The notes: generated by a model not told the origin, from the sequence alone. Shown: positions 23,921 to 46,769, counted from the stretch's first letter. The stretch: DNA of 64,000 nucleotides from a virus (IMGVR_UViG_3300010371_000034:1-64000); one strand, 5' to 3'. A program made the numbers and translations.

Positions 23921-25027
23921 CTAGTTGAGCACCACGATGCTGCTTACTTGCGAGCCGGCAGCGTCGGGCAAGGTAACGAAGTTGTCAAGAATCGGTTTGC
24001 CGTCCTGCCGCAGCCACACCCGGAACATCGCTTGGTTGCGCTGGAAGGCGCTGGTGTTTGTCGAGTACGGCGCATGCTCGGACACGTCGATCACCACCTG
24101 CATCCGGTCGCCGATCGCGTACAGCGACGGGTCGGTCAGGATCAGGTCGCCCTTGGTGCCGATAGCCGGCAGCTTGTCGGTGACGTACAGCGGCCGGTTG
24201 GCCAGGTATCCCACGCACTCATCGGCGTCGTCCCGCCGGTTGATGTTCGGTATGTAGCCGGTGATCCCTATGATGTCGGCCAGCGCCGTCACCGAGCAGC
24301 ACCATATCGCGTTGGCCCAGCCCATCGGCAGCAGCATGGCCACCATCGCCTTGACGTCGGCCTGAGCGATATGGTTGGAGCCAGCCCTGTTTTGCAGCAG
24401 CGCGCACGGGGCGTTTAGCATGCCCAGCGGCAGGGAGTTGGCCGCGCCCGTGCCGTTGAAGAACGCGTACTCCGCGTACCACGCTCCCGCCTGTCCGAAG
24501 TTCTGTAGCAGCCGGTCATCGGCGCCAGGACCCATGTCCATCAGCAGTTGGTTGGAAGCGATCGCGTAGTACAGGTTGTCCCAGGCGTGCAGCGTCATTG
24601 AACGGAACTGCGGCTCGAACTCGTTGGCGCTGAGCAGCCCCATCTGGGCGCCCCAGGTCGACAGGATGCCGCCGAAGAACGGCACGGTGCCGGCGGCCTG
24701 CGCGGTGGTCGCGTCCAGCATCGGGCAGGTCATCTCCAGCGACGCCATCGGCTGCACGTGAGCCCTGCGATAGATGATCGACCGCTCAGCCAGTGGCTTG
24801 ATGAACCGGGCGGTGTAGTCCATCGGCACCAGCCAACCGCCGGCGGCGCCCGACAGCTCGTCGTTGGCGGCAGACTTCTGTACGGAAGTGTGGACGCCAC
24901 CCTGCCGCTCGATCGCGTCGGGGTTGCCGCGCGCGACCGCCCGCAGGAACCCGCCGAAGGACTTGCGTTCTTCGGTAAGTCCTGAACCGTTGCGGGTCGG
25001 TACCGTTCTGTCGATGACTGCCGCCAT
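23921..25027 (-). CDS. Second HK97-fold capsid protein
   Basis: GGWLVP, SNQLLMD, AFFNGTG...PLGML, GDLILTD, FQRNQ...RQDGKP. Confidence 0.9.
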   Translation of the reverse strand: MAAVIDRTVPTRNGSGLTEERKSFGGFLRAVARGNPDAIERQGGVHTSVQKSAANDELSGAAGGWLVPMDYTARFIKPLAERSIIYRRAHVQPMASLEMTCPMLDATTAQAAGTVPFFGGILSTWGAQMGLLSANEFEPQFRSMTLHAWDNLYYAIASNQLLMDMGPGADDRLLQNFGQAGAWYAEYAFFNGTGAANSLPLGMLNAPCALLQNRAGSNHIAQADVKAMVAMLLPMGWANAIWCCSVTALADIIGITGYIPNINRRDDADECVGYLANRPLYVTDKLPAIGTKGDLILTDPSLYAIGDRMQVVIDVSEHAPYSTNTSAFQRNQAMFRVWLRQDGKPILDNFVTLPDAAGSQVSSIVVLN

Positions 25028-25101
25028 GTTGGGTGCCCGGTTTGTTGGTTATTTGTGTCGGCCTGCGGTATCGGCTCAGCCCGACTGCCAGCCGTTGGTT
25101 G

Positions 25102-26520
25102 TCAGTGCAGCACGACGAACGGGCTGATTTGCCACCCTTGGGCATCCTGAATCGGTTGCTGGAGCCAGGGCTTGCCGTCGCAGCGCGTGATAACCCTCCA
25201 CATCAGCTGGTTGCTCTGGAACAGCACGTGCGGGCTGACGTCGATCTGCATGTCCATGCGGTTGCCGACCACGTACCGGCTGAAGTCCGACAGCATCACG
25301 TCGCCCGTGGTGCCCAGCGTCGGCAGGCACTCGGTTAAGTACACCGGCAGGCCGTTGAAGAACACCATCGGCAGCTTCATCGCGGCCGGCCCGACCTGCC
25401 CGTTGCCGAACGGGCTGACCCAGATCAGCTGGTTGCGGGTAGAGTTGTCCACCATCTGCGCCAGCTCCGGCAGCACGCTCTGGTGCATGATCCAGCAGGC
25501 GGTGTCCCAGCTCCTGATCTGCGCGTGCGCCATCATCGCGCAGGCGTCGGCGTACTTGAAGTGTCCGGGGGTCGTGCGGCCCTGGAGCAGCGTCGCGGGA
25601 CTGTTGATGATGCCCAGCGGCATCGAGGCGCCGGCACCGAGGCCCTGGAGGAAGGCGTACTGCTTGTAAAAGCCGATGCCCCAGCCGAACAGCTGTGTCA
25701 GCAGCGCGTCCAGGCCGATGCCGTTGTCGGCGAGCAACTGGTTGGAGGAAACCGTCACGCCCACCAAGTCCCACGCGGTCCAAGTTGACTGGCGGAACTG
25801 CGGCTGCGTCTGGTTGTAGGTGACCGCCTCCGGCTGCCACTGGAACAGGATGCCGCCGCCGTAGGGCGTGGTGCCCCGGCTCTGCGCGGTCATGATGTCC
25901 AGCATCGGCAGGTCCATCGTCCTGCTGTTCATCGGAATCTGCTTGCACCGCTGCTCGACGAAGGCGTCCTCGCCCGCGATCGTCTGGAGCTCGGCCATGA
26001 ACTGCGGCGGGATTGTGTAGCCGCCGGCCATGCCGCTGTTCTCGGCCAGCGCGGTCTTGCGGCGCTCGTTGAGCAGCACCTTCTTGGTCCGCGGGTCCCA
26101 GCCGGGGACGCCCTTCTCCTTGGCCTTGACCACCGGCGTGCAGCCGTATTGCGCCTCAAGCTTGTCAGCGTCGTAGTCGCTGGCCCAGTCCGGCAGGTTG
26201 CGGGCGTACGCCATCGCGTCCTTGTCGCCGGCCAGCGCGGCCATCTTGATGAAGCACGGACCCATGCCGCTGAGCCGCTTCTCCTTGCCCGCGGTCAGGT
26301 GGTTGACCGCCGCGGAAGCGTAGGCGCCGCCCAGGTTGGCGTACTTGTATTTGTCCACTTCCCACGGGCCGGGAGCCTCCTGCGCGAATCCGGTGAACAG
26401 GCCGCGGGGATCGACCCCCTTGGCGGGAGTGCGCTCCATCTCGTCCAGGCGCTTGGTCAGAGCCTTGGTCATCTCGACCGAGCCCATGATCAGTTTGGTT
26501 TCTTCGGCGGTCAGAGCCAT
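25102..26520 (-). CDS. Major capsid protein (HK97 fold) with N-terminal scaffold-like domain
   Basis: GGYTIPP, SSNQLLAD, AFLQGLG...PLGII, GDVMLSDFSRY, RCDGKP; RBS AGGGGAG. Confidence 0.92.
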   Translation of the reverse strand: MALTAEETKLIMGSVEMTKALTKRLDEMERTPAKGVDPRGLFTGFAQEAPGPWEVDKYKYANLGGAYASAAVNHLTAGKEKRLSGMGPCFIKMAALAGDKDAMAYARNLPDWASDYDADKLEAQYGCTPVVKAKEKGVPGWDPRTKKVLLNERRKTALAENSGMAGGYTIPPQFMAELQTIAGEDAFVEQRCKQIPMNSRTMDLPMLDIMTAQSRGTTPYGGGILFQWQPEAVTYNQTQPQFRQSTWTAWDLVGVTVSSNQLLADNGIGLDALLTQLFGWGIGFYKQYAFLQGLGAGASMPLGIINSPATLLQGRTTPGHFKYADACAMMAHAQIRSWDTACWIMHQSVLPELAQMVDNSTRNQLIWVSPFGNGQVGPAAMKLPMVFFNGLPVYLTECLPTLGTTGDVMLSDFSRYVVGNRMDMQIDVSPHVLFQSNQLMWRVITRCDGKPWLQQPIQDAQGWQISPFVVLH

Positions 26521-26534
26521 CTGTCGTCTCCCCT

Positions 26535-26591
26535 TTGTCAAAAGAAAAACCCGCGTTGACCGGCACCGTGCGGTGCAGCCATTCGCGGGTT
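26535..26591 (-). terminator. Terminator-like hairpin just upstream of the MCP RBS
   Basis: AACCCGCG...CGCGGGTT followed by TTTCTTTT. Confidence 0.5.
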
Positions 26592-26648
26592 CTGCGGGAG
26601 TCGCCACCAGGCGGGCCGCCGATAGTCCGTGTTCGGGTGTGTTGTCTT

Positions 26649-26831
26649 CTACTTCGCTTCCACCTTGCTCTCTATCCACGTCCGCCTGACGCAGCCCTCG
26701 TTCATCACGGCCCGCCAGGCTATCTCGCCGGTCACCTTGTCGGCCCGGCGGTTGATCAGGTCGCGCAGCACGGTCTCCGCCAGCTTGCGCTCCTGCTCGG
26801 TCGCCATCTTCAGCAGTTGGTCCATCGCCAT
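26649..26831 (-). CDS. Hypothetical protein
   Basis: MAMDQLLKMATEQ; coupled to the upstream stop. Confidence 0.55.
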   Translation of the reverse strand: MAMDQLLKMATEQERKLAETVLRDLINRRADKVTGEIAWRAVMNEGCVRRTWIESKVEAK

Positions 26832-27163
26832 TACTTGTCGACCCCCGCCATCTGCCGCAGCTGGGCCATCCGGGCCGCCCACTGCCCGTCCTCGGCGAAG
26901 TCCGGCGCGAGGTTGATCTCGACCGTGATCTTGCCGCCCTTGGTCAGCAGTATCTTGTGCAGCAGCTGGTCGTCTCGGCAATCGACTGCGAACACCAGAT
27001 GGCTCTCCAGCGAGGGTCCGTCCAGCTGCCCCGCATCTGCGAGCAGCGCATGCTCGATCGCTTGCAACACCGCCGCCAGCTTGGGCGACGGATCGGCCGC
27101 AGCAGAGACGGTCGGCACCTCACGGTGCTCGCTCCAAATCAGTCTTTTTAGCCACCGCGGCAT
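26831..27163 (-). CDS. Hypothetical protein
   Basis: 110-aa ORF in the operon. Confidence 0.55.
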   Translation of the reverse strand: MPRWLKRLIWSEHREVPTVSAAADPSPKLAAVLQAIEHALLADAGQLDGPSLESHLVFAVDCRDDQLLHKILLTKGGKITVEINLAPDFAEDGQWAARMAQLRQMAGVDK

Positions 27164-27362
27164 GTTGCCTCGCTATCATCGCCCTGGCCAGCTGCGCCCC
27201 CACCGCTCTCGCAGTGCAGCTGGTCGCGTACCTGGCGGCGAAACCCACTTCTCGTTTTATTCCGACCCCCGTAAGACTGCCGGTCATCACGTCGGCGTAT
27301 ACCCGGCCCCACAGCACCTGCCAGCCTGGCAGCACCGGCACGCCTGGGTATCTGTCCGTCAT
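27120..27362 (-). CDS. Hypothetical protein
   Basis: ATGA overlap with the protease stop. Confidence 0.45.
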   Translation of the reverse strand: MTDRYPGVPVLPGWQVLWGRVYADVMTGSLTGVGIKREVGFAARYATSCTARAVGAQLARAMIARQHAAVAKKTDLERAP

Positions 27363-30300
27363 CGCCGGCTCCCGTTGAGGCCGACACGCTTGACGGTAGT
27401 CTCAAGCTCCATCGCGGAGTCCCGCAGCATGTCGAACAGCGCCTTCTGCTCTTCGTTGGTCGATTCCTCGGCCTTCTGCTCGGTCTCGGCGCCGGCTTCT
27501 TCCTTCTCCTCCTCCGGCTCGTCCTCCTTGGTCTCCTCCGGGTTGCCCATGTCGTTGAGGGCCTTCTTCAACCGCTTGGCGTTGTAGGACAGCGCGTCCT
27601 TGTGGTGTTCGGGAACGTCGGGGGCGCCCTTGAGCGACTGCATGTGGTCCAGCGCCTTGCCCATCGCGGCCTCGTGCGTGCCGTCCTCCAGCCCCTTGGC
27701 CAGCGCGTCGCCGTGCATGTCCAGCGCGGACTTGTGGTGCTCCGGCATGTCGTGCGCCACGGCCATGCCTTTCATCGCCGCGGACACTGACTTGATCGTC
27801 TCGGCGTGCTCCTCCTTCAACTCGGCGGGGTTGCCCTCGTCGTGCAGGTCGCCCATCGCGCCCTTGCCGCTGTCCAGATTGCCGGGGTCGGAGACGGAGG
27901 ACTTGCGGCGGAGTGATTTATATGCGGGGGATTTTCCAATCTTTTTGTCATCATGACCGTCTTCATATCCTGTGTTATAGTCTTGAAATTCCCTTGTACC
28001 ATTTTTGTATGGATTATTATGAATTTTACCACCATATCCAGCAACATAACCTGCCTTGAAAGCAGTGTCCAATGCTTTCTGCGCATGCCTCGGCAGCACC
28101 AGCCACTTGCGGCCGTCGCTGCCCGACTTGACCACGCCGCCCGCCGCCAGCACCTTGGCCACCTTCGCGGCCGACGCCTTGCGCGTGCCCCAGCGGCCCT
28201 TTTCGTTCTGGTAGCGCTCCAGTATCTCTTCAGTCGACGGATCGGATTCCTCCGCCTCGTCGCCCAGCGCTCCCTGGTGCTCTGGCTCGGCTGCTTCCTC
28301 GGCCGCCCACTCCGGCGAACCGATCTCGGACTTGTCCTCCTCGCCCTCCAGATCAGCCTGCAGCGCGTCATCCTCTTCCATATCGACCTCGCCGCCCAGG
28401 TCCATGTCCACTTCGGGAATCTCCCCGCGATCGACCAGGTTGGCCTCGCCCACTTCCTCGTTGGTGGTGTCGCTCAACCCCTTGCCGACCTCCTCGATGT
28501 CCTTCTCGCTGTGCTCGCCGAACATCGCCTTCAGCGACTCGGCCCGCTCGCCCAGCGACGCCAGGTGCTCGGTCAGCGCCTTATGCGCCTTGTTCTCCGC
28601 GCCGGTCTGCGGGTCAAACGGAGTGATGTCCTTGAGCGCCTCGGTCAGGTAGTCGCGGTCGGACTTGGCGGACTGGTACAGGTGAGCCATCGCCACTTCG
28701 TGGGGCGCGACGTCCATCGGGGCCGGGTCGTCGCTTTGCACCTCGGCGCCATCGTCGACCGATTCCTTCTGCACTCTCGTCTTCATGTTCTTTCTCCCGG
28801 CCAGCAGCTCCTTCGCTCCGTCCACCCAGCCAGCGTCCCAGTCCTCGCGGTACTGCGGGCCGCGGCCCTCGTTGTCGTTCTTGTAGGGGTTGGTGCTGCG
28901 GGCGCGGCCATCCCACGCGGCGACGTAGCCTTGGTCGTATTGGGTGTCCATGTCCTTGCGGCGGTTGAACGACTTCTTCAACCACACTTGCAAGGTATCC
29001 TTTGTACCTATCTGCCGTGGGTTAGGCACGCTGGCCAGATACCCGCCTAGTTTGTAATCCTCACTGTCCTCCGGCTTATCATATAACCAGTCGACCAGCT
29101 GGTCGTACTCGCCGTCGGACATCGTCACCCGCTTGCCGGCCTTCAGGTCGAGCCACTTGCTGCCCAGTCCCGACTTCTGCGCGATGTACCCGCCCGACGC
29201 GCCGGAGGTCTCGCCAAGCGATTTTTCAACCTTTCCATCATTCACTTCCGCAATCGTTTCTCCATGCTCATTTTCAATACTCACGCCGAATGATGGTTGC
29301 AATTCTTCTTCCATCTTTATTGCAGCGACAATAGCTTGCTGTTCTGAGCCGTTTACCGTTTTAGTTCCTTTGGAGGAAACTAAACGGTAACGATTTTTTT
29401 GCACCAGTCCTTTTGCCTTCCCGCCGCTGCCGTCGTCCAGGCCGTTCAGCCAGTCCTTGCCCGCCGGAGTGTGCGGATCGTAGGGGCAGTCCCCACTGGA
29501 CTTGCCACGCTTTCCCGCGGCGAACCCCTCGCGGTACTCCTTGCTGCCGTAGTCCTTCCGCAGCGCCTTCTCCCTTCCGGTACCGCCGCAAGCCGTGCAT
29601 TCGATCATTTCGCCGTTGCCGCTCCTGACCCATCCACGACCTTTACAGCGTTTACAGGGGTCTACGCCAGCTTTCAGTACCTTCGTCACCCGCGCCATCG
29701 ACCCCTTCGCCACCGCCCGGCCGTCGGCTCGGTGCGCGACGTGGATCGGTCCCTGCTTGGTGCGGTAGGTGGCGATGTATCCCTTGCCCACCCGTCGCAG
29801 CAGGCTCTTCTTGCCGCACGCCGCGCCGAACATGCCGCGCTGCGCCTCGGTCAGCGGCTGGCCGTTAGCCTCACCGTCGCGGAGGATTTGGCAGGCGTCC
29901 GAGGAGGTGATCTCTTCAGAGGGTTGCGCCTTGGTCATATCGATCTCCCCCTCGCCGCGGCCGTGGTCCATGTCGGCCTGGACGAGGGCCTTGTGCCGCT
30001 TCCACAGCGCTTTCGCCTTGCCGCACGGGCAGGCGTCGCCCTTGGAGCAGGCGGAGCAGCCGCAGGATTTGCGCGTAACTTCACGGCTCTTGATCTGCTG
30101 TTGTTTCGGCATCGGACACCACCCCGTGAAGCAGCCGCCGGATTCGTTGGTCGATTTGATCGCGCACGTGCCGCGGATGCACTTCTCCATCCGGTTGCTG
30201 ATGTGGCCATGCTCCTTGTCCGCGATGTCCCGCCACTCGCACATCTTGTCGTGGCAGTCGCGGCACCAATCCTTCAGCTCGGCCGGCGCGGACTTGTACC

Positions 30301-30931
30301 ACTTGGGTTGCACCGTGGCGAACGGGTTGCTGGGCACGCCGACCCAGCTGCCCTCGGTCTCGTCCCACCGGATGAAGTCGTATCCGCCAATGTCGCCTTG
30401 GTGCTGGTGCGCCTTGACCCGTTCCTTGCGCTGCGCCTCGATCGGCACGAACGCTACGGAGGTGGCGTTGACGAACCCGCGGTCAACCTTGCCCTTGAGG
30501 AAAGCGGCGTCCGGGTCCACCATGTCCCACCAGCACCACTGCTGCATCCGGTTCTCTTCCGGGAAGCAGCACAGCCGGCCGTCCGGCGACATCGCCTTGC
30601 CCACCGGTATCTGCCACTCCTGGTGCCCGAAGAACCACACCGGGTTCCTCTGGTAGTTCCCAAGGTAGGCGCCCATCGGGTGGACCGTGTCGCCGACCCG
30701 GTCCTCTTCAAGGCTGACCAGCGTAGCGACCGTGTACTGCTCCTTGCGGTCTTCGGCGCCCGTCACCCCGCTGCGGCCGTATCCCAGCACCGCCGAACCG
30801 TCTGGAGAGTCTTTGTAGATGTAGCAATAGTTCTCGACCAGCGACTTGGTCGACAGCGAGCCATCGCGCAGCGCCTTCTCGATCGCGCCGCGGCGGGAGG
30901 CCACGTCAGCTACGGATGGGTGTACCAGCAA
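27359..30931 (-). CDS. HK97-family prohead protease with long modular C-terminal extension
   Basis: EDRVGD, NPVWFFGH, PVGK, ATSVAF, EGSWVGVPSNP; then a Zn finger, three RMF-like modules and acidic scaffold-like tracts. Confidence 0.9.
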   Translation of the reverse strand: MLVHPSVADVASRRGAIEKALRDGSLSTKSLVENYCYIYKDSPDGSAVLGYGRSGVTGAEDRKEQYTVATLVSLEEDRVGDTVHPMGAYLGNYQRNPVWFFGHQEWQIPVGKAMSPDGRLCCFPEENRMQQWCWWDMVDPDAAFLKGKVDRGFVNATSVAFVPIEAQRKERVKAHQHQGDIGGYDFIRWDETEGSWVGVPSNPFATVQPKWYKSAPAELKDWCRDCHDKMCEWRDIADKEHGHISNRMEKCIRGTCAIKSTNESGGCFTGWCPMPKQQQIKSREVTRKSCGCSACSKGDACPCGKAKALWKRHKALVQADMDHGRGEGEIDMTKAQPSEEITSSDACQILRDGEANGQPLTEAQRGMFGAACGKKSLLRRVGKGYIATYRTKQGPIHVAHRADGRAVAKGSMARVTKVLKAGVDPCKRCKGRGWVRSGNGEMIECTACGGTGREKALRKDYGSKEYREGFAAGKRGKSSGDCPYDPHTPAGKDWLNGLDDGSGGKAKGLVQKNRYRLVSSKGTKTVNGSEQQAIVAAIKMEEELQPSFGVSIENEHGETIAEVNDGKVEKSLGETSGASGGYIAQKSGLGSKWLDLKAGKRVTMSDGEYDQLVDWLYDKPEDSEDYKLGGYLASVPNPRQIGTKDTLQVWLKKSFNRRKDMDTQYDQGYVAAWDGRARSTNPYKNDNEGRGPQYREDWDAGWVDGAKELLAGRKNMKTRVQKESVDDGAEVQSDDPAPMDVAPHEVAMAHLYQSAKSDRDYLTEALKDITPFDPQTGAENKAHKALTEHLASLGERAESLKAMFGEHSEKDIEEVGKGLSDTTNEEVGEANLVDRGEIPEVDMDLGGEVDMEEDDALQADLEGEEDKSEIGSPEWAAEEAAEPEHQGALGDEAEESDPSTEEILERYQNEKGRWGTRKASAAKVAKVLAAGGVVKSGSDGRKWLVLPRHAQKALDTAFKAGYVAGYGGKIHNNPYKNGTREFQDYNTGYEDGHDDKKIGKSPAYKSLRRKSSVSDPGNLDSGKGAMGDLHDEGNPAELKEEHAETIKSVSAAMKGMAVAHDMPEHHKSALDMHGDALAKGLEDGTHEAAMGKALDHMQSLKGAPDVPEHHKDALSYNAKRLKKALNDMGNPEETKEDEPEEEKEEAGAETEQKAEESTNEEQKALFDMLRDSAMELETTVKRVGLNGSRR

Positions 30932-31659: not shown

Positions 31660-31886
31660 TTCGCCTCCGCCATGTAGACTCGCATCCCGCAGCTAACTGG
31701 TTGATTTGCGGCATCTGTGCCGGCAGTCGGGCAGCCGACGCACGGCCGCGGGCCGAAGCCTGGGTCTATCCTCGTCTGGCACTCCGACCTTCTGCACCGG
31801 ACCACTCGACCGCACGACGGGCACCTGCCGACCATGACGTCGTCGGGGTCACCTTGCGGAGCAGAGTTCGTGGTATTCCTCAGCAT
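31656..31886 (-). CDS. Small Cys-rich protein
   Basis: CPSC...CVGCP...CG. Confidence 0.5.
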   Translation of the reverse strand: MLRNTTNSAPQGDPDDVMVGRCPSCGRVVRCRRSECQTRIDPGFGPRPCVGCPTAGTDAANQPVSCGMRVYMAEAK

Positions 31887-32676
31887 GTCGATTCCTCAGT
31901 TTGTCCAGTGCGCAATGCTTGATCTGCCGCACGCGTTCCTTGGTCAGGTGCAGCGCGTCGCCCAGCTGCCGCAGGGTCTTGCCGTTCATGTAGTACCCGA
32001 CCAGTATCCGCCGCTCGACAGAGCTTATCACGCGGGAATGTAGCACCATCTCGGTCGCCTCGTAGTTGACCTTGTGCTCCTCCCCAACCGTCAGCCAGTA
32101 GTCGGCCGGCTCGTTCTTGGCGATGTCGGTGTCGTAGCAGTCCACCATCGGCGCCAGCACCCTCTCAGCGGCCTCCACAGATACCATCAGCTTCTTGCGA
32201 AGCTTTTCGCCCGCCTGCTTCCTCTTGATCAACTTCCACAGGTAGTCCGGCACCCGCACCTGGTTGTCGTGCGACGAACGCTGCCTCCGCGCCTTCAGCA
32301 TCTCCGTCGCGATAGCCTTGCTGGCGTAGGTGATGAATTTGACCGGCCTGCCGTCCTTGATGAAATCGCCCCTGTAGTTGTAGATCGCCGCTATGACAGC
32401 CAGATTGCCCTCGGACACCATGTCCAGCATCTCCTGCTGGCCGCACCTGTTCAGCCTGGTAGCTATCGACACCACCAGCGGTAGGAAGCTGACCATCACT
32501 CGGTTCCTGGCCGCGACGCCCTCGGCGGCCAGCTCGCTCAATTCGACGCACGGCCTGCCGCGCTCGCTCAGCTGCTTTTCTGCCGTCCTGCCAGCCTGCG
32601 CCTGCTCTATCAGCGGCACCAGCTGCTCCTGCGGAATCTGCTCCAGGTTGTTGAGCTCGCTCATGTACTCGCGCAT
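31849..32676 (-). CDS. Sigma70-family sigma factor
   Basis: Region 2 LPLVVSIA, DMVSEGNL, KFITYA, VRVP; region 4 TLRQLGDALHLTKERVRQI. Confidence 0.9.
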   Translation of the reverse strand: MREYMSELNNLEQIPQEQLVPLIEQAQAGRTAEKQLSERGRPCVELSELAAEGVAARNRVMVSFLPLVVSIATRLNRCGQQEMLDMVSEGNLAVIAAIYNYRGDFIKDGRPVKFITYASKAIATEMLKARRQRSSHDNQVRVPDYLWKLIKRKQAGEKLRKKLMVSVEAAERVLAPMVDCYDTDIAKNEPADYWLTVGEEHKVNYEATEMVLHSRVISSVERRILVGYYMNGKTLRQLGDALHLTKERVRQIKHCALDKLRNRHAEEYHELCSAR

Positions 32677-32704
32677 TGGTGTCCCTCTCCGTTGCGTGGA
32701 TTGG

Positions 32705-33397
32705 TTAGGTATACCCAAAATGCGGGCATATCCCACCGTTCTGCCTTTTACCCCAGTTACAGTTAGCGCACAGCACTTGAAACCCTTCAGGAAACTTATG
32801 CCTCTTTAGCCACAGGTATAAAGCACCGCTACCTATCTCCCTACGATGAACTGCGCCATCGTTTTCAACATGGTCTATCTGTAGAAACAAAACCTCCGTC
32901 TCGCCGCAGCAATTGCACCTATACCCACCATACGCGGCAAATACATCGTCCTTTAATTTCCTACCCCGTTTAATGTAATAGTCTTTGCATTGCTGGCAGT
33001 GCTTCGTTCCAGATACTATATCACTCGATCCACATTTCAGGCATTGTTTGTTTTGTAGTCGTTTCTTTCTACGTTCCTTGTGGCAATCCAAGCCTCTCTG
33101 CCGACATACCAGACACCTTTTCTTTCCCTCTGTCAATTCCCTACCACACTGAGGGCAGATTCCAGTACCAACCCTTCTCTTCTTCCTGGTATGGTAATAC
33201 TTCTTTGATTTTTGTAAGCATGATTCGCATATATCCTTGCCGTTGCTACGATCATGCGCCGTACAGCATTTTGGACATTTTCCGGCTGCCACCCGCCTAG
33301 CATATCTACCAGAGTCTCTTTTCTTTTGTTTACCTAGACAAGCCCAGCATAATCCACCTTCCCTATCAACCGACTTTCCACAGTGCAAGCAATTCAT
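32705..33397 (-). CDS. HNH endonuclease with multiple CxxC fingers
   Basis: YGGYRCNCCGE, LQIDHVENDG, QVLCANCN; low GC. Confidence 0.85.
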   Translation of the reverse strand: MNCLHCGKSVDREGGLCWACLGKQKKRDSGRYARRVAAGKCPKCCTAHDRSNGKDICESCLQKSKKYYHTRKKRRVGTGICPQCGRELTEGKKRCLVCRQRGLDCHKERRKKRLQNKQCLKCGSSDIVSGTKHCQQCKDYYIKRGRKLKDDVFAAYGGYRCNCCGETEVLFLQIDHVENDGAVHRREIGSGALYLWLKRHKFPEGFQVLCANCNWGKRQNGGICPHFGYT

Positions 33398-33493
33398 TAC
33401 CGGCGTCTCCCCCGGTTGTCTCAAGTGTAGCGGTGGAAGGCGGTGAGACTTACCGCTTTGTCGGGTGCCCCCTATCCACCACTATACAGTCAA

Positions 33494-34357
33494 TCAATTT
33501 CCTCTTGAGTCGTGCAAAAGCAGAAAGGGATGAGCCGGAGGGTAAAGAATTACCGCATACGGCCCCCCTTTCTGATCTACGTGAAACGGTTCTCCGATGT
33601 TGACCGTCTTGCCATCCAGCGATAGGCATTGTTCGCACGCGTCCGCGCTGGCCAGCCAGCTGTGCCGCTTGACTCCCGCCTCTACTGCCGCCATCATCTG
33701 CCCTCCATGCACGGCGCGCGAGCCCTCGGTCGCCGCTATACGAAACGCTCGCATGGGGTCCGCGAAGATCATCCGCACCTTCTTGGCCAACAAAGCCACC
33801 GCGTCGCCCTGCGGCAAGCCCTCCCGCATCAGCCTGCGCAGGTCGTCCAGCGCATCGCCTAGCTCGCGTGTAGCCGTCTCGTTGGTCTCCCGGCAGAACG
33901 CATAGGCGGCTGCGTCGACCGCGTCCAGCACCTTAGGGTTGAACAGGTCGAACGAGAAGCCCAGGTCCTCTGTCTTGCGCTGGCCCGACGCCTTGCAGAC
34001 CAGCCGCTTGCGGACCAGCGTGAGCATTGGAGCTGACCGCTGCTCCATCCTGGGGCCAAAAATCGACTCATTGCCCGGCTGGTGCCTGCGCATGCCGTCC
34101 ATGCTCGGCGCGGGAACCCGCGGCATGTCCGCCTCGGCACGCTTGCCCAGCTTCGCCGCGATCCTGGCGGACGCCTGCACCATCCCCTGCTGCCACATCT
34201 CCAGCAGCAGCGGCTTGACGGCGTCGGCGGTCGCGCGCACCCAGCCCGACGTGTCCGGCGGCGGGTCGCCCGGCCGCACCTTTGACAGCACGTCCCGCGC
34301 CTGCTGCTGGTACAGCAGGTTGAGCAGTCGCATCAGCTTGGTCGGGTTGTTGCTCAC
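33494..34357 (-). CDS. MuF/SPP1 gp7-like minor head protein
   Basis: RAFRIAATE, WLAS..ACEQCLSLDG, PPAHP; the terminal CxC lies in the +1 frame. Confidence 0.85.
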   Translation of the reverse strand: MSNNPTKLMRLLNLLYQQQARDVLSKVRPGDPPPDTSGWVRATADAVKPLLLEMWQQGMVQASARIAAKLGKRAEADMPRVPAPSMDGMRRHQPGNESIFGPRMEQRSAPMLTLVRKRLVCKASGQRKTEDLGFSFDLFNPKVLDAVDAAAYAFCRETNETATRELGDALDDLRRLMREGLPQGDAVALLAKKVRMIFADPMRAFRIAATEGSRAVHGGQMMAAVEAGVKRHSWLASADACEQCLSLDGKTVNIGEPFHVDQKGGPYAVILYPPAHPFLLLHDSRGN

Positions 34358-39878: not shown

Positions 39879-40933
39879 TATAAGCTCCCCATGCCCATAG
39901 ATGACATTCCGCCAGTTGAATCATTGTCGAGATACGGCCATACCTGTGCAGTGATGGCAGCTGAACCGCCAAAACGTACACTTTTTCCTGTTCCTGTTGG
40001 CAACGTCCCAGGATTTGAGTATTTGCTCCCAAACCCACTGCTCCAGGGATAGGCTGTCACGTAGGGAGAACCCGCATGACCTACTGAAATATCAGTCCCA
40101 GCCATTGAAAACGATACGCCGTAACCTGATCCAGATGGTAACGTGCCTGGGTTAGAATACTTGGTTCCGAATCCACTTGACCACGGATATGCTGTGATAT
40201 TAGGCGAGTTATTGTGAGCCAGAGCGATATCGTTGCCCGATGGTGAAAATGATACATCCTTGCCTGCAAATCCTGATGGCAATGTTCCAGGATTGGTGTA
40301 TTTTGTTCCAAATCCACTGCTCCAGTGATACGCTGTTATGTACGGAGAGTTGGAATGTCCAATCGCCACATCATTGCCCGAAGGAGCAAATGCAATGGCT
40401 CCTCCGGTTCCAGGTAAGCCTGATACCGGATTAGCGTACTTGGAGCCGAAACCGCTGCTCCAGGGATACGCTGTCACGTATGGAGATGAATTATGTGCTA
40501 CCCCTATGGCATTGCTTGACGGGGTAAAACTAACTTTGTTCCCTTGCCCTGCCGGAAGAGTACCTGGATTGGAGTATTTGCTGCCAAAGCCTGCGCTCCA
40601 AGGATACGCCGTGACAAATGGACTGGTACCATGTGATACCGCGATATCCGATCCAGCAGGCGTAAATGATATTCCAAACGCGTTTCCTGCTGGAAGCGTC
40701 CCTGGGTTGGAGTACTTTGTTCCGAAACCACCGCTCCAGGGATACGCCGTGACAAATGGAGTGATTATATGCGCTACAGCTAAACTCGTCGCTGATAGAG
40801 AAAACCCGACACCGCCACCGGCATTGGACGGCAGTGTCCCTGGGTTAGAATATTTGGAGCCGAAACCGCTGCTCCAGGGATACGCTGTCACGTATGGAGA
40901 TGAATTATGCCCCACGACTATGTAACTCGACAT
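39878..40933 (-). CDS. Seven-repeat beta-propeller-like protein
   Basis: Seven approximately 44-aa repeats H..SPYVTAYPWSSGFGSKYSNPGTLP. Confidence 0.8.
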   Translation of the reverse strand: MSSYIVVGHNSSPYVTAYPWSSGFGSKYSNPGTLPSNAGGGVGFSLSATSLAVAHIITPFVTAYPWSGGFGTKYSNPGTLPAGNAFGISFTPAGSDIAVSHGTSPFVTAYPWSAGFGSKYSNPGTLPAGQGNKVSFTPSSNAIGVAHNSSPYVTAYPWSSGFGSKYANPVSGLPGTGGAIAFAPSGNDVAIGHSNSPYITAYHWSSGFGTKYTNPGTLPSGFAGKDVSFSPSGNDIALAHNNSPNITAYPWSSGFGTKYSNPGTLPSGSGYGVSFSMAGTDISVGHAGSPYVTAYPWSSGFGSKYSNPGTLPTGTGKSVRFGGSAAITAQVWPYLDNDSTGGMSSMGMGSL

Positions 40934-42204: not shown

Positions 42205-42756
42205 TTAAACCCGCTCCACCTCGGACACCTTGCCATCGTCCGAGTGCCTGACCACCAGTCGCGTGGGCCTCTCCATCTTCTCCATCCGCTTGACCAGCCC
42301 CGCCAGCGTCGCGATCATCTCCCTATTGGACCGCTCGATCGCACCCATCGTATCGGCGTTGGCCTTGACGAAGGACTTGACCAGCTGCTCGATCGACTCC
42401 GACAGCGCGATCCCTTGGCTTTCGATCGCGTCGACCACGCCTGAGAAATCCACCACGGCGTCTGCCGGCTTGACCGTCACCTCGTTGACCGGCTGCATCA
42501 CCGCAATCGATGCGCTCAGTTGCTTGATCGCCTCCAGCACCACCCCCTGGTCCACCGCTACGCGCTCGTTGTGGAGCAGTACGTCGGCCAATCCCTTCTC
42601 GATACCGTCGGCTAAGCTCTGCTGGTCCACCACCGGCCGGTCGGCCTGGTATTCAAGTGCGTTCAGGCGCTTGACCAATGGCTGGAGCACCCGCTCCTTG
42701 ATCGAGTCCACCAGCGCCTTGACCTTGACGCCGTCGCTGACGGTAATCGCGCTCAT
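42205..42756 (-). CDS. Hypothetical helical protein
   Basis: Coupled to the portal stop; RBS GGAGG. Confidence 0.6.
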   Translation of the reverse strand: MSAITVSDGVKVKALVDSIKERVLQPLVKRLNALEYQADRPVVDQQSLADGIEKGLADVLLHNERVAVDQGVVLEAIKQLSASIAVMQPVNEVTVKPADAVVDFSGVVDAIESQGIALSESIEQLVKSFVKANADTMGAIERSNREMIATLAGLVKRMEKMERPTRLVVRHSDDGKVSEVERV

Positions 42757-45700
42757 AGCACCCCCTCCAGCATCTTGTCGATCTCCTGGCGACAAGCCGC
42801 GTACTCGTCTTGCTCCTTCAGCCGCGGCCGCAGTCGCTTGCCCGCCAGCGCCCCGTGCACGCCCCTGATCGTCTCGGCGACTGCAACCACGGCCGCGATG
42901 TTGCCCGGTATCGGCATCGTCGCCAGCATGCCCACGGCCATCGCCAGCGCTCCCTTGCGCCCGTAGCGGCTCTCAAGCGACAGCCACTTGTCGGCAAGCC
43001 ACCTGCCGGCCTGCTGGACCGACAGCGCCTTGGCCCGCATCTCTCTGGTGGCCGGGTAGACGCGGTCCCGCTTCTCCGCATCGTACAGCTCGCGCAGGTG
43101 GAACTGCACCTCGACGACCATGCCGCAGGGCGTCCGGTAGTTGCGCAGCATGTCCCGGTAGCCGCCCTGGAGCGGCTGCGCGAACCGGTCCTTCTGCCGC
43201 ACCAGCACCAACCGCCCGTCGATCTCCTCGGCCGCGTCCCGCAGCTCTTGCTCGGTGTCTCTAACCACCGACGCCCGCACCACGTCCAGCAGCCGCGACC
43301 AATCGCCGCCGTAGTCCCGCTCGACCTTCTCCTCGGCCCGCTCAAGCGACTTGATCGGAACCTGCACCGCGCCTTCGACGCCTTGCAGCGCCCGGTCCAG
43401 TTCGCCCTGCGCCTGGACCACCAGCGCGTACAGCTCCTCCGGCTTGTCCACCGGCTGCTTGACCATCTCGCCGCCACGCTGCTCGACCTCGGCCAGGATG
43501 TCCGGCCAGGGGGAGCGGCCGTCTATCGCCCGGTCGTCCACGTACAGGTCCGCCACGACCTTGGCGCTGGCTCCCGCGGGCTGGTCGCTGTTGGTGTTGA
43601 TCGAGTCGTATTCTATCCCGCTGCCGTCCAGCTGGTCCTTGATCGCCTGCACGTCGCCGCGGGTCGTCCACACGATGATCTTCCATCCCCGGTTCCGCAG
43701 CGCCGCCAGCGCCTCCCGTGCCCCGTCGCGGACCTCGCCGAAGTGCCCCTCGCCCCGCCAGCCGTCGTACTCCAGGATCGTGCCGTCCAGGTCCACGGCC
43801 ACGGTCTGCTGGTGCTTGTAGACGGTCCAGCCCTTGCGCACCAGCTGCTTGCTCGGCTTGCCGTTTGGCTTGTCAATCTTGCCGCCGTCGGCCTGCGCCT
43901 CTTCGACTTCTTGCGCTTGCTCGTTCGCGTCGTCGGCCTTGCCGCTGTCGCTGACTTCCTCGCTGGGCAGGTCCTCGTTTGACTCCACCGTGCCCAGCTT
44001 GTCGGAGTCTTTGCCGGCTGCCATCGACTCGGAGTACTGCCGCACAAGGTCGGTCAGGTCGTCCCCCTTCTCCTCGACGTTGACCGGCGCTGGCATCGGA
44101 CCGCCCGGACCCTGGACCCACGGGTTGTCGCCGCCCATCGCGTATGGCTTGCGGCCGCGCAGCACCCGGACCTCGTTGGTGGTGATCGCGGGCGGGCTGG
44201 CCTGCATGTCCACTTGGAGGTCGCTGTTGACCTGCGCGGGGTCTGCCGGCGTCAGGTTGTCGTACCATATCCTTGCCTCGCGGACGCCGCCCGACCCGCC
44301 GTGGCCCGACCCGGTCAGACTGGACCACGCGGGAGTCTCCTCGTCGAACTCCTTGGCAAGGTGCTTGGTCTCGACTTCGCCCTCCTGGGCCAGCAGGGGG
44401 TTCAGGCCGTTCTCGCAGTTTCCAGTAACGTGAACCTTGCCATTTCTGCGCACGAAGAACAGACCTGTCGGCACCGTTACACACCACACCGTGCCGTCGT
44501 ACTCAACGGTGCTGCGCATGTCTGGTGATAGCACAACCTCTTGCCTGGTTGATACGTCAACGCGGTACGCTACCTTCCTGTCGCTGCGTGGGTCTGGTTG
44601 TACACATACAGTTGCAGAGAATCCACACTTGACTGCGATCTCTGCAACGTCATCAGCAAGTTGCTTGCTAACCGTCTTGTAATTGGAGCTAGAGTTGCCG
44701 GTGTTCTCGCAGTCCATCCATGCGTGCCCGTCTCCTTCCATAAGAGCATCAAACAGTACCCTCAAGTCCTCAGCCGACCATGACTTTACCTCTTCAGGAA
44801 CGCGCTTGTTCTGGGAACCAATGCCTAGTGATACTAAGTAGTCATAGATTCCCTTGTCGCTCGCTTTCCAAGTGTGGCAACTGGTGTCTCTAGGGTCAAC
44901 CTTGTCTGTCCACTTTAGTGGCAGCGCAAGGATTCCTGCCTTTACTGACTCAAACGTTCTTGTTGATTTCTCTGATTGCGTAATACATATTCCCCACCCT
45001 CCGTTCGTCCTGTCGCAAAGATGCCCCTCACTCAGGTAGAGGCCAAGAAACCGCAACCACACCTTCCTGTCTACGCACCTGTCGTCCAACTCATGCACTA
45101 TATTCCTGCTACCGCATGGGTTGTATGATGGGAATGACACGTACTTCGGCGGGTCAGTTGCTCCTATTAGCGGTGCCGACCTCTTTATCCTGTACGTCGT
45201 GGCAGGCGTCATGTCGTCTATCTTGATCGTTTCCCAGGGGTAGTTCAGGTGTTTCCTTGACGCAGCCGGGAACCGCTGCAAGTGTACCCGATGCCCTGGA
45301 GTCATGCAGGCGTCAACGCGCTGCCCTTGCCACAGGTGCATCGGCCCCTTATACGGCTCAACGACGATCCTAGACGGTTTGTGGTACACCATGCTCTGGG
45401 ATGCTTGATCGTAGCAAGCGACCACAGTATCGTCAGTCAACTCCCAGCACTTCTTCCAACCACAGTCAGTCAAGCACTCCGTGTCATCATCCAAGCACCA
45501 GCCGGCCAGCGTCGCCAGCACCGAGCCGAACGTCATGTCTTGCACCATGCCAAGTGCAGCTTGAGGCGTGCCAAAGCCGGCGCAGATCGCCTTGGCCATC
45601 TGGTCGAACCCCTCCATGTAGGCCATGTCGGTCGGGGAGAACGACAGCGGGGTGACCACCGTGCCGCTGGGGGTGAACAGCGGCTTGCCCACGTTGAACT

Positions 45701-46769
45701 CGCCCTGGTGCTTCTGGGCGATCTTGGCCTCCCAGCGCGATATCATGTAGTCGTCGGGATCGGTGTAGCCTGGCGGCATCGACACCCAGAACTCAGGCCG
45801 GGCCATGTTGATGAACTGCGACCAGCGGGACCGTGCTATCGACTCCTCCGTGTCGATCCACCTTGACAGCGACCACAGCTTGCTGTATCCGTCCAGCTTG
45901 TTGACGGGAGACTTGAACAGATGGATGATCACATCGTCGATGGGAATCTTGAGCATGCCGGCCGAGCCCATGCCGCCCCACGGCCGTACCTCCAGGTACT
46001 CGATAAGCCGGTCAGCGTCGGGATGCTCCGGGTCGACGTGCTTGTGGCCGCCGGTCCTTGGCCACACCCAGTGCGACGGGATCACCCACCGCTCGCACGG
46101 CCTGCCGAACCTGTTGCGCACCTTCCACTCGTAGGCCACACCGCACAGGAACTTGAACATCCGCAGCTCGTACATGTAGTCGAAGTGCGTATCAACGGGA
46201 TTGGGGTTCTGGATCAGTGAAGGGAGGAGGTGCCTGCGCTCTATCGGCTCAAGCTCCTCGTGCGGCTTGAGCACGCTGAGCGCCTTGGAACGGTACTCGC
46301 CGATGGTGAGGAACGAGCTGTTGCTGCCGGACAGCTTCCGAGCCGCGTCGTAGTTGGAGTAATCCACCCAGTCGCCGCCGGCCGGCGCCTGCGGTTTGGC
46401 CCCCCACTTGCCCGGCTGGCCTTTGTGGATGTCTGATCCCACGTGGCCAGTACCACCGAAACCCCTACCGGTGGCGTTGAGCAGCGACCGCTCGCACGCC
46501 TTGACCGTCCTGCCCGGCACGCCGGAGTCATGCACCCAGGCGACGTTGGGGTAGACGCTGGACAGCTTCATGCAGTTGGCGTGGATGACGACGTAGGTCC
46601 AGTCCAGGTAGTGCTGCACCTGGGAGATGCGGTCCTGCGACCAGCCGCCGGGATATCCGGTGCCATGCGCGGCCGGGAACAGGCGGCCCAGTATCCGCTC
46701 GCCCGGCGTGGCGCTCTTGCTCACCGCGCCAGCCGATGCCCTGGTCAAGTGCCTGGCCGATTTAATCAC
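42753..46769 (-). CDS. Portal protein with intein and C-terminal HAD-like and RelA/SpoT-like domains
   Basis: Portal motifs LIQNPNP, DGYS, FINMARP, GEFNVGKP, ICAGFGTP, TTNEVR; then VDLDGT...YVDDRA; then IKSLERAEEK...DVVRAS...GYRD...EVQFH. Confidence 0.9.
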   Translation of the reverse strand: MIKSARHLTRASAGAVSKSATPGERILGRLFPAAHGTGYPGGWSQDRISQVQHYLDWTYVVIHANCMKLSSVYPNVAWVHDSGVPGRTVKACERSLLNATGRGFGGTGHVGSDIHKGQPGKWGAKPQAPAGGDWVDYSNYDAARKLSGSNSSFLTIGEYRSKALSVLKPHEELEPIERRHLLPSLIQNPNPVDTHFDYMYELRMFKFLCGVAYEWKVRNRFGRPCERWVIPSHWVWPRTGGHKHVDPEHPDADRLIEYLEVRPWGGMGSAGMLKIPIDDVIIHLFKSPVNKLDGYSKLWSLSRWIDTEESIARSRWSQFINMARPEFWVSMPPGYTDPDDYMISRWEAKIAQKHQGEFNVGKPLFTPSGTVVTPLSFSPTDMAYMEGFDQMAKAICAGFGTPQAALGMVQDMTFGSVLATLAGWCLDDDTECLTDCGWKKCWELTDDTVVACYDQASQSMVYHKPSRIVVEPYKGPMHLWQGQRVDACMTPGHRVHLQRFPAASRKHLNYPWETIKIDDMTPATTYRIKRSAPLIGATDPPKYVSFPSYNPCGSRNIVHELDDRCVDRKVWLRFLGLYLSEGHLCDRTNGGWGICITQSEKSTRTFESVKAGILALPLKWTDKVDPRDTSCHTWKASDKGIYDYLVSLGIGSQNKRVPEEVKSWSAEDLRVLFDALMEGDGHAWMDCENTGNSSSNYKTVSKQLADDVAEIAVKCGFSATVCVQPDPRSDRKVAYRVDVSTRQEVVLSPDMRSTVEYDGTVWCVTVPTGLFFVRRNGKVHVTGNCENGLNPLLAQEGEVETKHLAKEFDEETPAWSSLTGSGHGGSGGVREARIWYDNLTPADPAQVNSDLQVDMQASPPAITTNEVRVLRGRKPYAMGGDNPWVQGPGGPMPAPVNVEEKGDDLTDLVRQYSESMAAGKDSDKLGTVESNEDLPSEEVSDSGKADDANEQAQEVEEAQADGGKIDKPNGKPSKQLVRKGWTVYKHQQTVAVDLDGTILEYDGWRGEGHFGEVRDGAREALAALRNRGWKIIVWTTRGDVQAIKDQLDGSGIEYDSINTNSDQPAGASAKVVADLYVDDRAIDGRSPWPDILAEVEQRGGEMVKQPVDKPEELYALVVQAQGELDRALQGVEGAVQVPIKSLERAEEKVERDYGGDWSRLLDVVRASVVRDTEQELRDAAEEIDGRLVLVRQKDRFAQPLQGGYRDMLRNYRTPCGMVVEVQFHLRELYDAEKRDRVYPATREMRAKALSVQQAGRWLADKWLSLESRYGRKGALAMAVGMLATMPIPGNIAAVVAVAETIRGVHGALAGKRLRPRLKEQDEYAACRQEIDKMLEGVL
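44418..45497 (-). mobile_element. Intein (360 aa) with LAGLIDADG endonuclease in portal
   Basis: W|CLDDDTECLTDCGW ... TPGH ... FLGLYLSEG ... ALMEGDG ... VWCVTVPTG...TGN|C; lower GC. Confidence 0.92.

Follow-up and report, generated by a model that had tools for sequence, protein, structure and literature searches.

In phage HK97 the prohead protease gp4 is a protein of 225 residues with a C-terminal docking role, accompanied by a single HK97-fold capsid gene (gp5), whose experimentally known maturation cut is K103↓S104 (the arrow marks a known or predicted cut throughout). Proteases of this type digest themselves, and the HK97 delta domain and protease leave the prohead. In phages lambda (C/Nu3) and P2 (gpO), one reading frame encodes a protease followed by a helical part that resembles a scaffold; these tails are short and single-purpose, and we know of no fusion of this type with swappable small domains or with modules that have the fold of the ribosome modulation factor RMF. 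The internal proteins IPI-III and Alt of phage T4 and the ejection proteins of SPN3US and phiKZ are loaded into the head, trimmed by the protease, retained and ejected; the T4 proteins are encoded by separate genes, in hypervariable loci, and they carry an N-terminal targeting peptide and are cut after Glu (LxE). Polyvalent proteins are multidomain proteins encoded in head-gene context that are predicted to be packaged, are sometimes processed by their own protease and are delivered with the DNA (Iyer et al. 2017, PMC5512222). Here we analyse a polyprotein of 1190 residues that begins with a prohead protease and continues into a tail of small modules, encoded in a 64,000-nucleotide stretch of viral DNA (IMGVR_UViG_3300010371_000034:1-64000; hereafter, the window) taken from an IMG/VR virus record of 78,777 bp with an estimated completeness of 94%.

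The locus has in common with HK97 gp4/gp5 a protease of the same family with its His and Ser motifs, an adjoining HK97-fold capsid gene with a delta-like N-terminal domain, and a predicted Lys cut in a near-identical context (K↓SLG...GG/SL..P). It differs in the length of the protease protein, in the extra modules, in a cut-site copy of its own and in having two capsid genes instead of one. The union of an N-terminal protease and a scaffold-like helical part in one frame recalls lambda C/Nu3 and P2 gpO, but the tail is neither short nor evidently single-purpose. The likeness to the T4, SPN3US and phiKZ proteins lies in probable use only, together with a hypervariability that the T4 loci share with the slots described below; the candidate cargo would here lie within the protease polypeptide, at Lys junctions, the protease is of the HK97 type, the E-S dipeptide is not enriched, and a separate, leader-bearing cargo gene is lacking. 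With at least eight distinct modules behind the protease, in a tail that the sequence-only reading of the window had already described as about 980 residues of short modules, the protein falls within the 2-15 unrelated domains in head-gene context that characterize polyvalent proteins. Effectors fused to MuF or portal proteins are likewise multidomain and lie in head-gene context, and the portal protein of this phage also has a long C-terminal extension. The processing peptidase of the polyvalent proteins in the survey is a zincin-like MPTase, and their domains are mostly enzymes, against the mini-domains of 40-70 residues found here; the survey uses "prohead" once and contains neither HK97 nor RMF (PMC5512222). 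A literature search returned no account of an RMF-bearing tail on an HK97-type protease. Proteins that are packaged in the capsid and processed by a protease are a known kind, and so are protease-scaffold fusions; new are the cargo-like modules on the protease itself, with Lys joints.

The open reading frame (ORF) of the polyprotein occupies positions 27359-30931 of the minus strand, on which all features of the protein and both capsid genes lie, and is open for 1190 codons; the gene-caller version starts at residue 10 and comprises 1181 amino acids. The head genes follow one another on this strand in the order portal, MuF-like, sigma factor, protease ORF and major capsid proteins MCP1 and MCP2, which places the polyprotein gene between the portal and the major capsid genes, as expected of a prohead protease. 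The protease-MCP1-MCP2 order is retained in six IMG/VR loci.

The N-terminus is an HK97-type (S78) prohead serine protease, in agreement with the sequence-only reading. Its core (residues 55-205; 30317-30769) contains His103 (FFGHQEW..PVGK) and Ser158 (NATSVAFVP) in motifs that are invariant in all 17 family sequences and whose counterparts, read from the HK97 record, are FFNHKTW..PVGK (His65) and GMSVGF (Ser114) of gp4. Residues 77-210 share 33.6% identity with a protein of Bacillus phage Flasso that is annotated as prohead protease. In a full-length AlphaFold model, residues 55-199 (pLDDT ~75-87) match T4 gp21 (5jbl_A; Z 9.6, rmsd 3.4, 126 residues aligned), the sole structure among the top ten matches other than helical bundles. 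PF04586 (Peptidase_S78) is matched at E<=0.001 by 6 of 17 relatives, and its 21-bit cut-off is passed by three of the seven that were scanned individually (P0003 with 29.6 bits, P0008 with 27.5 and P0006 with 25.5); a profile of the family's N-terminal domain, in turn, recovers HK97 gp4. The core is followed by a conserved helical and Cys-containing protease extension (residues 206-275, 30107-30316; RD..D.E...GGCxTGWCP) with invariant columns at R234, D235, D238, G270 and C272. Within the protease, an invariant K173-A174 (residues 173-186, 30380-30415, minus strand) precedes HQH....GGY/GW.F in a loosely cut-site-like arrangement, which could be a site of self-cleavage or simply belong to the fold. 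Stand-alone short proteins of the protease clade number only three, two on short contigs and one without contig data, and may be truncated fragments.

The tail contains a mimic of the capsid maturation site. MCP1 (25102-26679; PF05065, E 5e-29) has the HK97 fold and a long N-terminal delta-like domain of ~155-200 residues, with a predicted cut at K208↓T209; MCP2 (23921-25027; PF05065, E 3e-17) has the same fold and a predicted cut at K51↓S52. All MCP1 and MCP2 proteins of the family carry K↓[ATSV]..E.SG..GGY.[VI]P at the end of the N-terminal extension, and each polyprotein contains exactly one copy of K↓[ATSV]..E.SG..GGY, at a position that varies among relatives. In the protein studied here, this mimic of the maturation site and N-arm occupies residues 568-586 (29174-29230) as VEK↓SLGETSGASGGYIAQK↓S; it reads K↓SLGETSGASGGY, to be compared with K103↓SLGSDADSAGS of HK97, and the gp5 stretch in the HK97 record, FNK↓SLGSDADSAGSLIQP, presents the same context.

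Dipeptide statistics point in the same direction. The 17 family members contain 279 K-S dipeptides where composition predicts 114 (2.5-fold; P 6e-39) and 295 K-A dipeptides where it predicts 172, while K-G, K-T, K-D, K-N, R-S and E-S show no excess; 14 further proteins encoded by this phage are likewise free of any K-S or K-A excess. The signal is directional (KS 279, SK 103; P 7e-20), and the residue after K-S (P2') is enriched 3.8-fold in Leu and also in Ile, Met and Phe. The K-S excess is present in the tails alone, including the non-homologous tails of P0011, L002, L006, L010 and P0012. It also follows the form of the mimic: all ten polyproteins with S or A after the Lys of the mimic have a K-S excess of 2.4- to 4.1-fold, whereas two of the three with K↓G (L001, L003 and L008) have none. 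Because the K-S excess coincides with one capsid-site mimic per polyprotein, self-processing of the tail after Lys is well supported at the sequence level, and a Lys↓Ser(Ala) cut rule is supported by the directional excess together with the mimic.

Three stretches of the tail resemble RMF, as had been proposed from the sequence: over the whole protein, PF04957 matches with E 9.9e-12. Module 1 (residues 456-505; 29417-29566) scores 31.2 bits at residues 464-501, above the cut-off of 27.9, and aligns to PDB entry 2jrm; modules 2 (residues 654-714; 28790-28972) and 3 (residues 950-1006; 27914-28084) score 21.2 bits (~655-705) and 21.8 bits (~952-990), below it. Module 3 additionally matches phrog_26995 (E 3.4e-11), and module 1 attains 27.4 bits on NF041886 against a cut-off of 28 and 14.1 on NF041887 against 40. 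A module of the module-2 type in the relative P0010 reaches 34.1 bits on the RMF profile. A six-frame search of the whole 78.8-kb record located RMF at 29429-29545, 28814-28963 and 27986-28090, with no further or free-standing copy of ~55 residues; all three lie inside the 1190-residue ORF.

Profile and fold comparisons rank RMF first. A six-sequence profile, built from the three modules and three small proteins from a library of 1.8 billion proteins, matched only RMF chains among 177,635 PDB sequences (2jrm, E 1.7e-5; 6h4n and 4v8g, ~2e-3). The fold comparison was run on module 2 only, with weak E-values. Its AlphaFold model, built from 13 sequences, consists of two helices (pLDDT 77.5); the top three of 350,542 PDB chains by Foldseek are all RMF (2jrm, 9iot_y with TM 0.76 and rmsd 2.8 Å, and 6h4n_v), and VIA-align ranks ribosome-bound RMF first among 48,161 chains (4v8g_AV; Z 6.0, rmsd 3.2, 51 of 53 residues). 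The scores are modest because the domain has only ~55 residues; the ranking is clear. What the modules share with RMF (PF04957) and with the small proteins of the Rmf/CrpP fold (NF041886, NF041887) is the pattern GY.AG..G....(C/N)PY......W..GW and the two-helix fold; unlike RMF, they are embedded in a polyprotein, near neutral or acidic, and present as three diverged copies.

These differences bear on the sequence-only reading when it is taken in full: the modules would be released, packaged and ejected and would shut down host ribosomes in the manner of RMF, by formation of 100S particles or by blocking of the anti-Shine-Dalgarno sequence. Homology and fold are genuine and speak for such an action. 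The net charge of the cores, however, is ~-1 for module 1 over the aligned span (+1 over a slightly longer one), -4 for module 2 and 0 for module 3, against ~+5 for the aligned 43 residues of E. coli RMF as counted from the alignment; with their flanks, modules 1, 2 and 3 reach +1, 0 and +2. By charge count, the strongly basic surface expected of RMF is absent from all three, and at the basic positions of RMF, Q/D/E stand in for the R before GY and V/D for the one that follows GW. This lack of net positive charge speaks against binding of 16S rRNA as by RMF. In addition, no single module passes the 40-bit equivalog cut-off of NCBIfam NF011162 (32.3, 27.1 and 18.0 bits); genuine RMF is known as a gammaproteobacterial factor. 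Canonical RMF action on ribosomes is therefore unlikely on the evidence of the sequences, and as a complete account, from release to ribosome shutdown, we regard it as very improbable; ejection of the pieces and hibernation of the RMF kind are elements of the earlier interpretation that found no support.

The modules also differ in conservation. Eight relatives share module 2 at 60-75% identity, against 40-53% for their proteases; no other part of the middle region is as well conserved, and the module is acidic in each of them (-2 to -6). Neither K-S nor K-A occurs within it, it lies between conserved K↓S columns at 653 and 714, and its conservation marks it as an old part of the family and not a captured cassette. 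Module 1 is without counterpart in the relatives, and a word-based homologue search with it gave no candidates. Module 3 coincides with an AT-rich cassette, here called B. Third-position GC is ~0.9 along the gene and falls to ~0.3 at residues 506-570, an in-frame cassette (A; 29222-29416) without family match or Protein Atlas match, and to ~0.15 at residues 950-1006, the module 3 region, which holds the most AT-rich 90-base window of the entire 64 kb (GC 0.30). The earlier description of three AT-rich patches thus holds for 27888-28104 (minimum GC 0.30) and 29202-29430 (minimum GC 0.39); 28985-29090 is only mildly so (GC 0.54). In-frame capture is likewise supported for the two cassettes with the drop in third-position GC, which by their composition look recently acquired, but does not extend to module 2. 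No donor of the AT-rich cassettes was found, and a comparison of the module 3 cassette with 1.8 billion representatives gave no close relative, only small multi-module proteins and low-complexity sequence. A diversity-generating retroelement or DNA duplication was considered as the source of the cassettes and rejected, because within the window neither the cassettes nor the RMF modules are repeated.

Patches whose GC lies so far from that of their flanks could also be chimeric joins of a metagenome assembly, in which case the long ORF would not be real. The reading frame, however, is intact across both patches, one of them encodes a recognizable RMF-like domain, and relatives have different inserts in the identical slot. 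Moreover, the 1181-residue protein is present with 0-3 substitutions on four contigs from JGI, ENA and Logan assemblies. Since a near-identical protein occurs on four contigs, the long frame, AT-rich parts included, is not an assembly chimera, and an artefact of this kind is scarcely credible.

AT-rich sequence is not confined to this gene. With 90-base windows and GC below 0.47, the 64 kb of this genome of 62.6% GC contain 26 AT-rich islands, some of them inside other large ORFs (for instance at 32710-33564, 40073-40392 and 50809-51989) and some in large virion genes. Since such islands are common, the phage as a whole, and not this gene alone, seems to take up low-GC segments in mosaic fashion; their distribution suggests that such uptake is genome-wide.

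Comparison with related protease genes shows that module content differs among them, the tail being a conserved framework with slots that accept small, independently folding modules. In the protein collection there are 12 long forms of 962-1736 residues, of which ten are family members and two are distant proteins that share a single module; a further ten IMG/VR loci encode polyproteins of 868-2046 residues, with two capsid genes next to them wherever the contig extends. An alignment of close relatives delimits the conserved segments PHEVAMAHLY...PFDPQTGEANKAH, TGEANLVD, TEEILERYQ and W.TRKAS..VAKVL.AGG..K...DGRKWLV, a four-helix bundle and a C-terminal helix, separated by hypervariable stretches. 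According to this alignment and the model, residues 739-830 (28442-28717) form a conserved, scaffold-like helical framework. The conserved segment at residues 896-948 (28088-28246; TEEILERYQ ... TRKAS..VAKVLAAGG ... DGRKWLV) acts in the alignment as an adaptor before a variable slot, which is occupied by RMF module 3 here, by another RMF-like module in P0007 and by SH3/KOW-like or unclassified modules elsewhere, and which ends in a conserved K-S in 9 of 13 sequences; the corresponding K↓S column, 1010, closes the slot in the present protein. The four-helix bundle (residues 1036-1130, 27542-27826; pLDDT ~90) has a repeated PEHHK.AL and, by structure, resembles generic helical bundles only, as does the whole 1190-residue model in Foldseek searches. 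The C-terminal helix (residues 1151-1190; 27362-27481) is kept in close relatives and, by analogy with the docking role of the gp4 C-terminus, is a candidate capsid-docking tail; a predicted complex of MCP1 (residues 54-525) with the C-terminal 155 residues of the tail scored 0.00, which speaks neither for nor against binding.

The conserved C-terminal region could also be made as a protein of its own. In an arrangement of nested genes like that of lambda C/Nu3, a start at Met716 would yield an abundant, scaffold-like C-terminal protein of ~475 residues, and the modular look of the tail would then be due in part to overlapping products and not to proteolysis alone. A Shine-Dalgarno-like GGGAG stands 7-8 bases upstream of this ATG, and in most close relatives the Met lies in a basic motif, [KR][NST]MK[KR]R, at the start of the conserved C-terminal region. 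An internal start would leave the K-S excess and the site mimic without explanation, and we consider it unlikely, although it would be compatible with the processing model preferred below. The bases that precede the Met716 codon inside the ORF (28784-28805, minus strand) are GGGAGAAAGAAC.

Two further modules are recognized by sequence sharing. The first, a two-helix module of 41 residues (335-375; 29807-29929) bounded by K334↓A and K375↓S, recurs at 64-78% identity in P0003 and in the otherwise distant long proteins P0012 and P0013; the latter two, from other contigs and other lineages, have it at 64-67%. P0012 has a recognizable HK97-like protease domain of another lineage, and P0013 may, by its sequence, begin with a protease of a different family; this distribution suggests either exchange of the module between such proteins or a function that they conserve. 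The second (residues 587-653; 28973-29173) is common to P0004, P0005 and P0008. A zinc-ribbon module (residues 422-455, 29567-29668; CxxC...CxxCxGxG) has weak matches to DnaJ_CXXCXGXG, DUF5817 and phrog_26056, and the Protein Atlas gave no usable match for residues 508-572 or 330-422. Other relatives contain zinc ribbons, YajC/KOW-like domains, DUF1918, DUF2188 and, in two cases, an AAA ATPase. P0011 has only the protease in common with the protein studied here, and the tails of the IMG/VR relatives L001-L010 are without the GEANL framework, with no RMF modules found in them. Searches with Pfam, PHROGs and NCBIfam, PADLOC not being included, detected no known conflict-effector domain in the polyprotein.

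These observations can be assembled into a model of head maturation. The polyprotein would co-assemble with MCP1 and MCP2 in the prohead, through the conserved framework or the C-terminal helix; the protease would then cut after Lys where a small residue follows, namely at K↓S and K↓A and, among some relatives, at K↓G. Its substrates would be both the capsid proteins and its own tail, the latter being broken into pieces of 16 to ~100 residues. Modules that fold compactly, RMF module 2 among them, would outlast this processing as internal head proteins and exit together with the DNA. Prohead assembly, cutting after Lys and at least partial retention of modules, taken jointly, are the account towards which we lean slightly, on the basis of sequence and models. 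A more far-reaching form, in which the prohead protease is a carrier of cargo whose modules are cut out, retained and injected as a fast-evolving first-strike set aimed at translation or defence, with in-frame capture at Lys-Ser joints, we find unlikely.

Several observations weigh against this model, and the phage is uncultured. The polyprotein itself does not match PF04586 at E<=1 and scores 14.3 bits on TIGR01543 against a cut-off of 59. All eight Lys junctions listed in the sequence-only reading are present by string search (LRKD 457, VQKN 510, VEKS 568, AQKS 584, LKKS 651, RRKD 657, AQKA 950 and AYKS 1003), but three of them are K-D or K-N, dipeptides that are not enriched; statistical enrichment is confined to the K-S and K-A junctions. 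K-S also occurs in conserved helices (756, 1047 and 1067), and there are sites inside two of the modules, K477↓S in module 1 and K959↓A in module 3; cutting everywhere would thus destroy those modules, not release them. Homology breakpoints lie within five residues of K↓[SA] in 42% of cases, against 32% at random, which is not significant (P 0.096). Finally, the near-neutral charge of the modules does not indicate a target.

Part of this evidence can be read differently. The tail may be a scaffold or capsid filler that the Lys sites chop into pieces small enough to exit before DNA packaging, in which case nothing would be delivered to the next host and the mini-domains would act during assembly or be passengers. 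Self-disposal accounts as well as effector release does for the K-S and K-A sites that fall in conserved helices and in RMF modules 1 and 3; scaffolds typically have long conserved helical stretches and acidic linkers, and the self-digestion of HK97-type proteases and the departure of protease and delta domain from the HK97 prohead offer a precedent. Variable slots that take up foreign cassettes, and AAA ATPases in relatives, are nevertheless hard to explain if the tail is disposable, and so is RMF module 2, with no internal K-S or K-A and with conserved K↓S on both sides. A second scaffold of ~1000 residues is, furthermore, not obviously needed, because MCP1 has a delta-like domain of its own. 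We regard disposal of the entire tail as possible, though less probable than the retention of at least some modules that the preferred model assumes.

The remaining observations concern the surroundings of the gene and its relatives. The tandem, diverged HK97-fold capsid genes (23921-26679) are also found in L003, L004, L006, L008 and L010, and the pair, with a long N-terminal extension in MCP1 and a short one in MCP2, is present in all related loci that are long enough; the sequence of MCP1 had no PDB match. Between the protease ORF and MCP1 lies a gap of ~680 bases (26680-27358), larger if MCP1 starts at Met54, which contains only small unannotated ORFs (26831-27163, 110 residues; 27120-27362, 80 residues). 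A sigma-70-type factor gene with regions 2 and 4 (31849-32736, minus strand) lies amid the head genes, two genes upstream of the protease. The portal protein, encoded at 42753-46769 on the minus strand, has 1338 residues, of which PF04860 covers only 177-416; a long C-terminal extension of ~900 residues is unexplained by Pfam, and the gene has an AT-rich island at 44592-45033. Among the relatives, the polyprotein at L009:10001-16060 has 2020 residues, with an AAA ATPase (PF00004, residues 647-764) in its tail, and that at L002:950-5920 has 1657 residues. The one at L004:2230-7415 is split into two overlapping ORFs of 517 and 1227 residues from stop to stop, which may reflect a frameshift, either programmed or an error. 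No cultured close relative of the phage was found, a search of genome contigs revealed no prophage copy of the polyprotein, and a metagenome search for it added short fragments only.

If the polyprotein proves to be a self-clearing protease and scaffold, it would still be a useful example of such a protein growing by domain accretion. With its K↓S-bounded slots, the family provides a natural blueprint for packaging small foreign domains into HK97-like shells. If the tail is cut into packaged mini-proteins, the small proteins of the Rmf/CrpP fold that are widespread yet unexplained in phages and mobile elements would gain a setting as virion-delivered proteins. The same outcome would amount to a third route of loading the capsid, besides T4-type leaders and MuF or portal fusions, in which built-in cut sites on the maturation protease itself carry cargo into the capsid.

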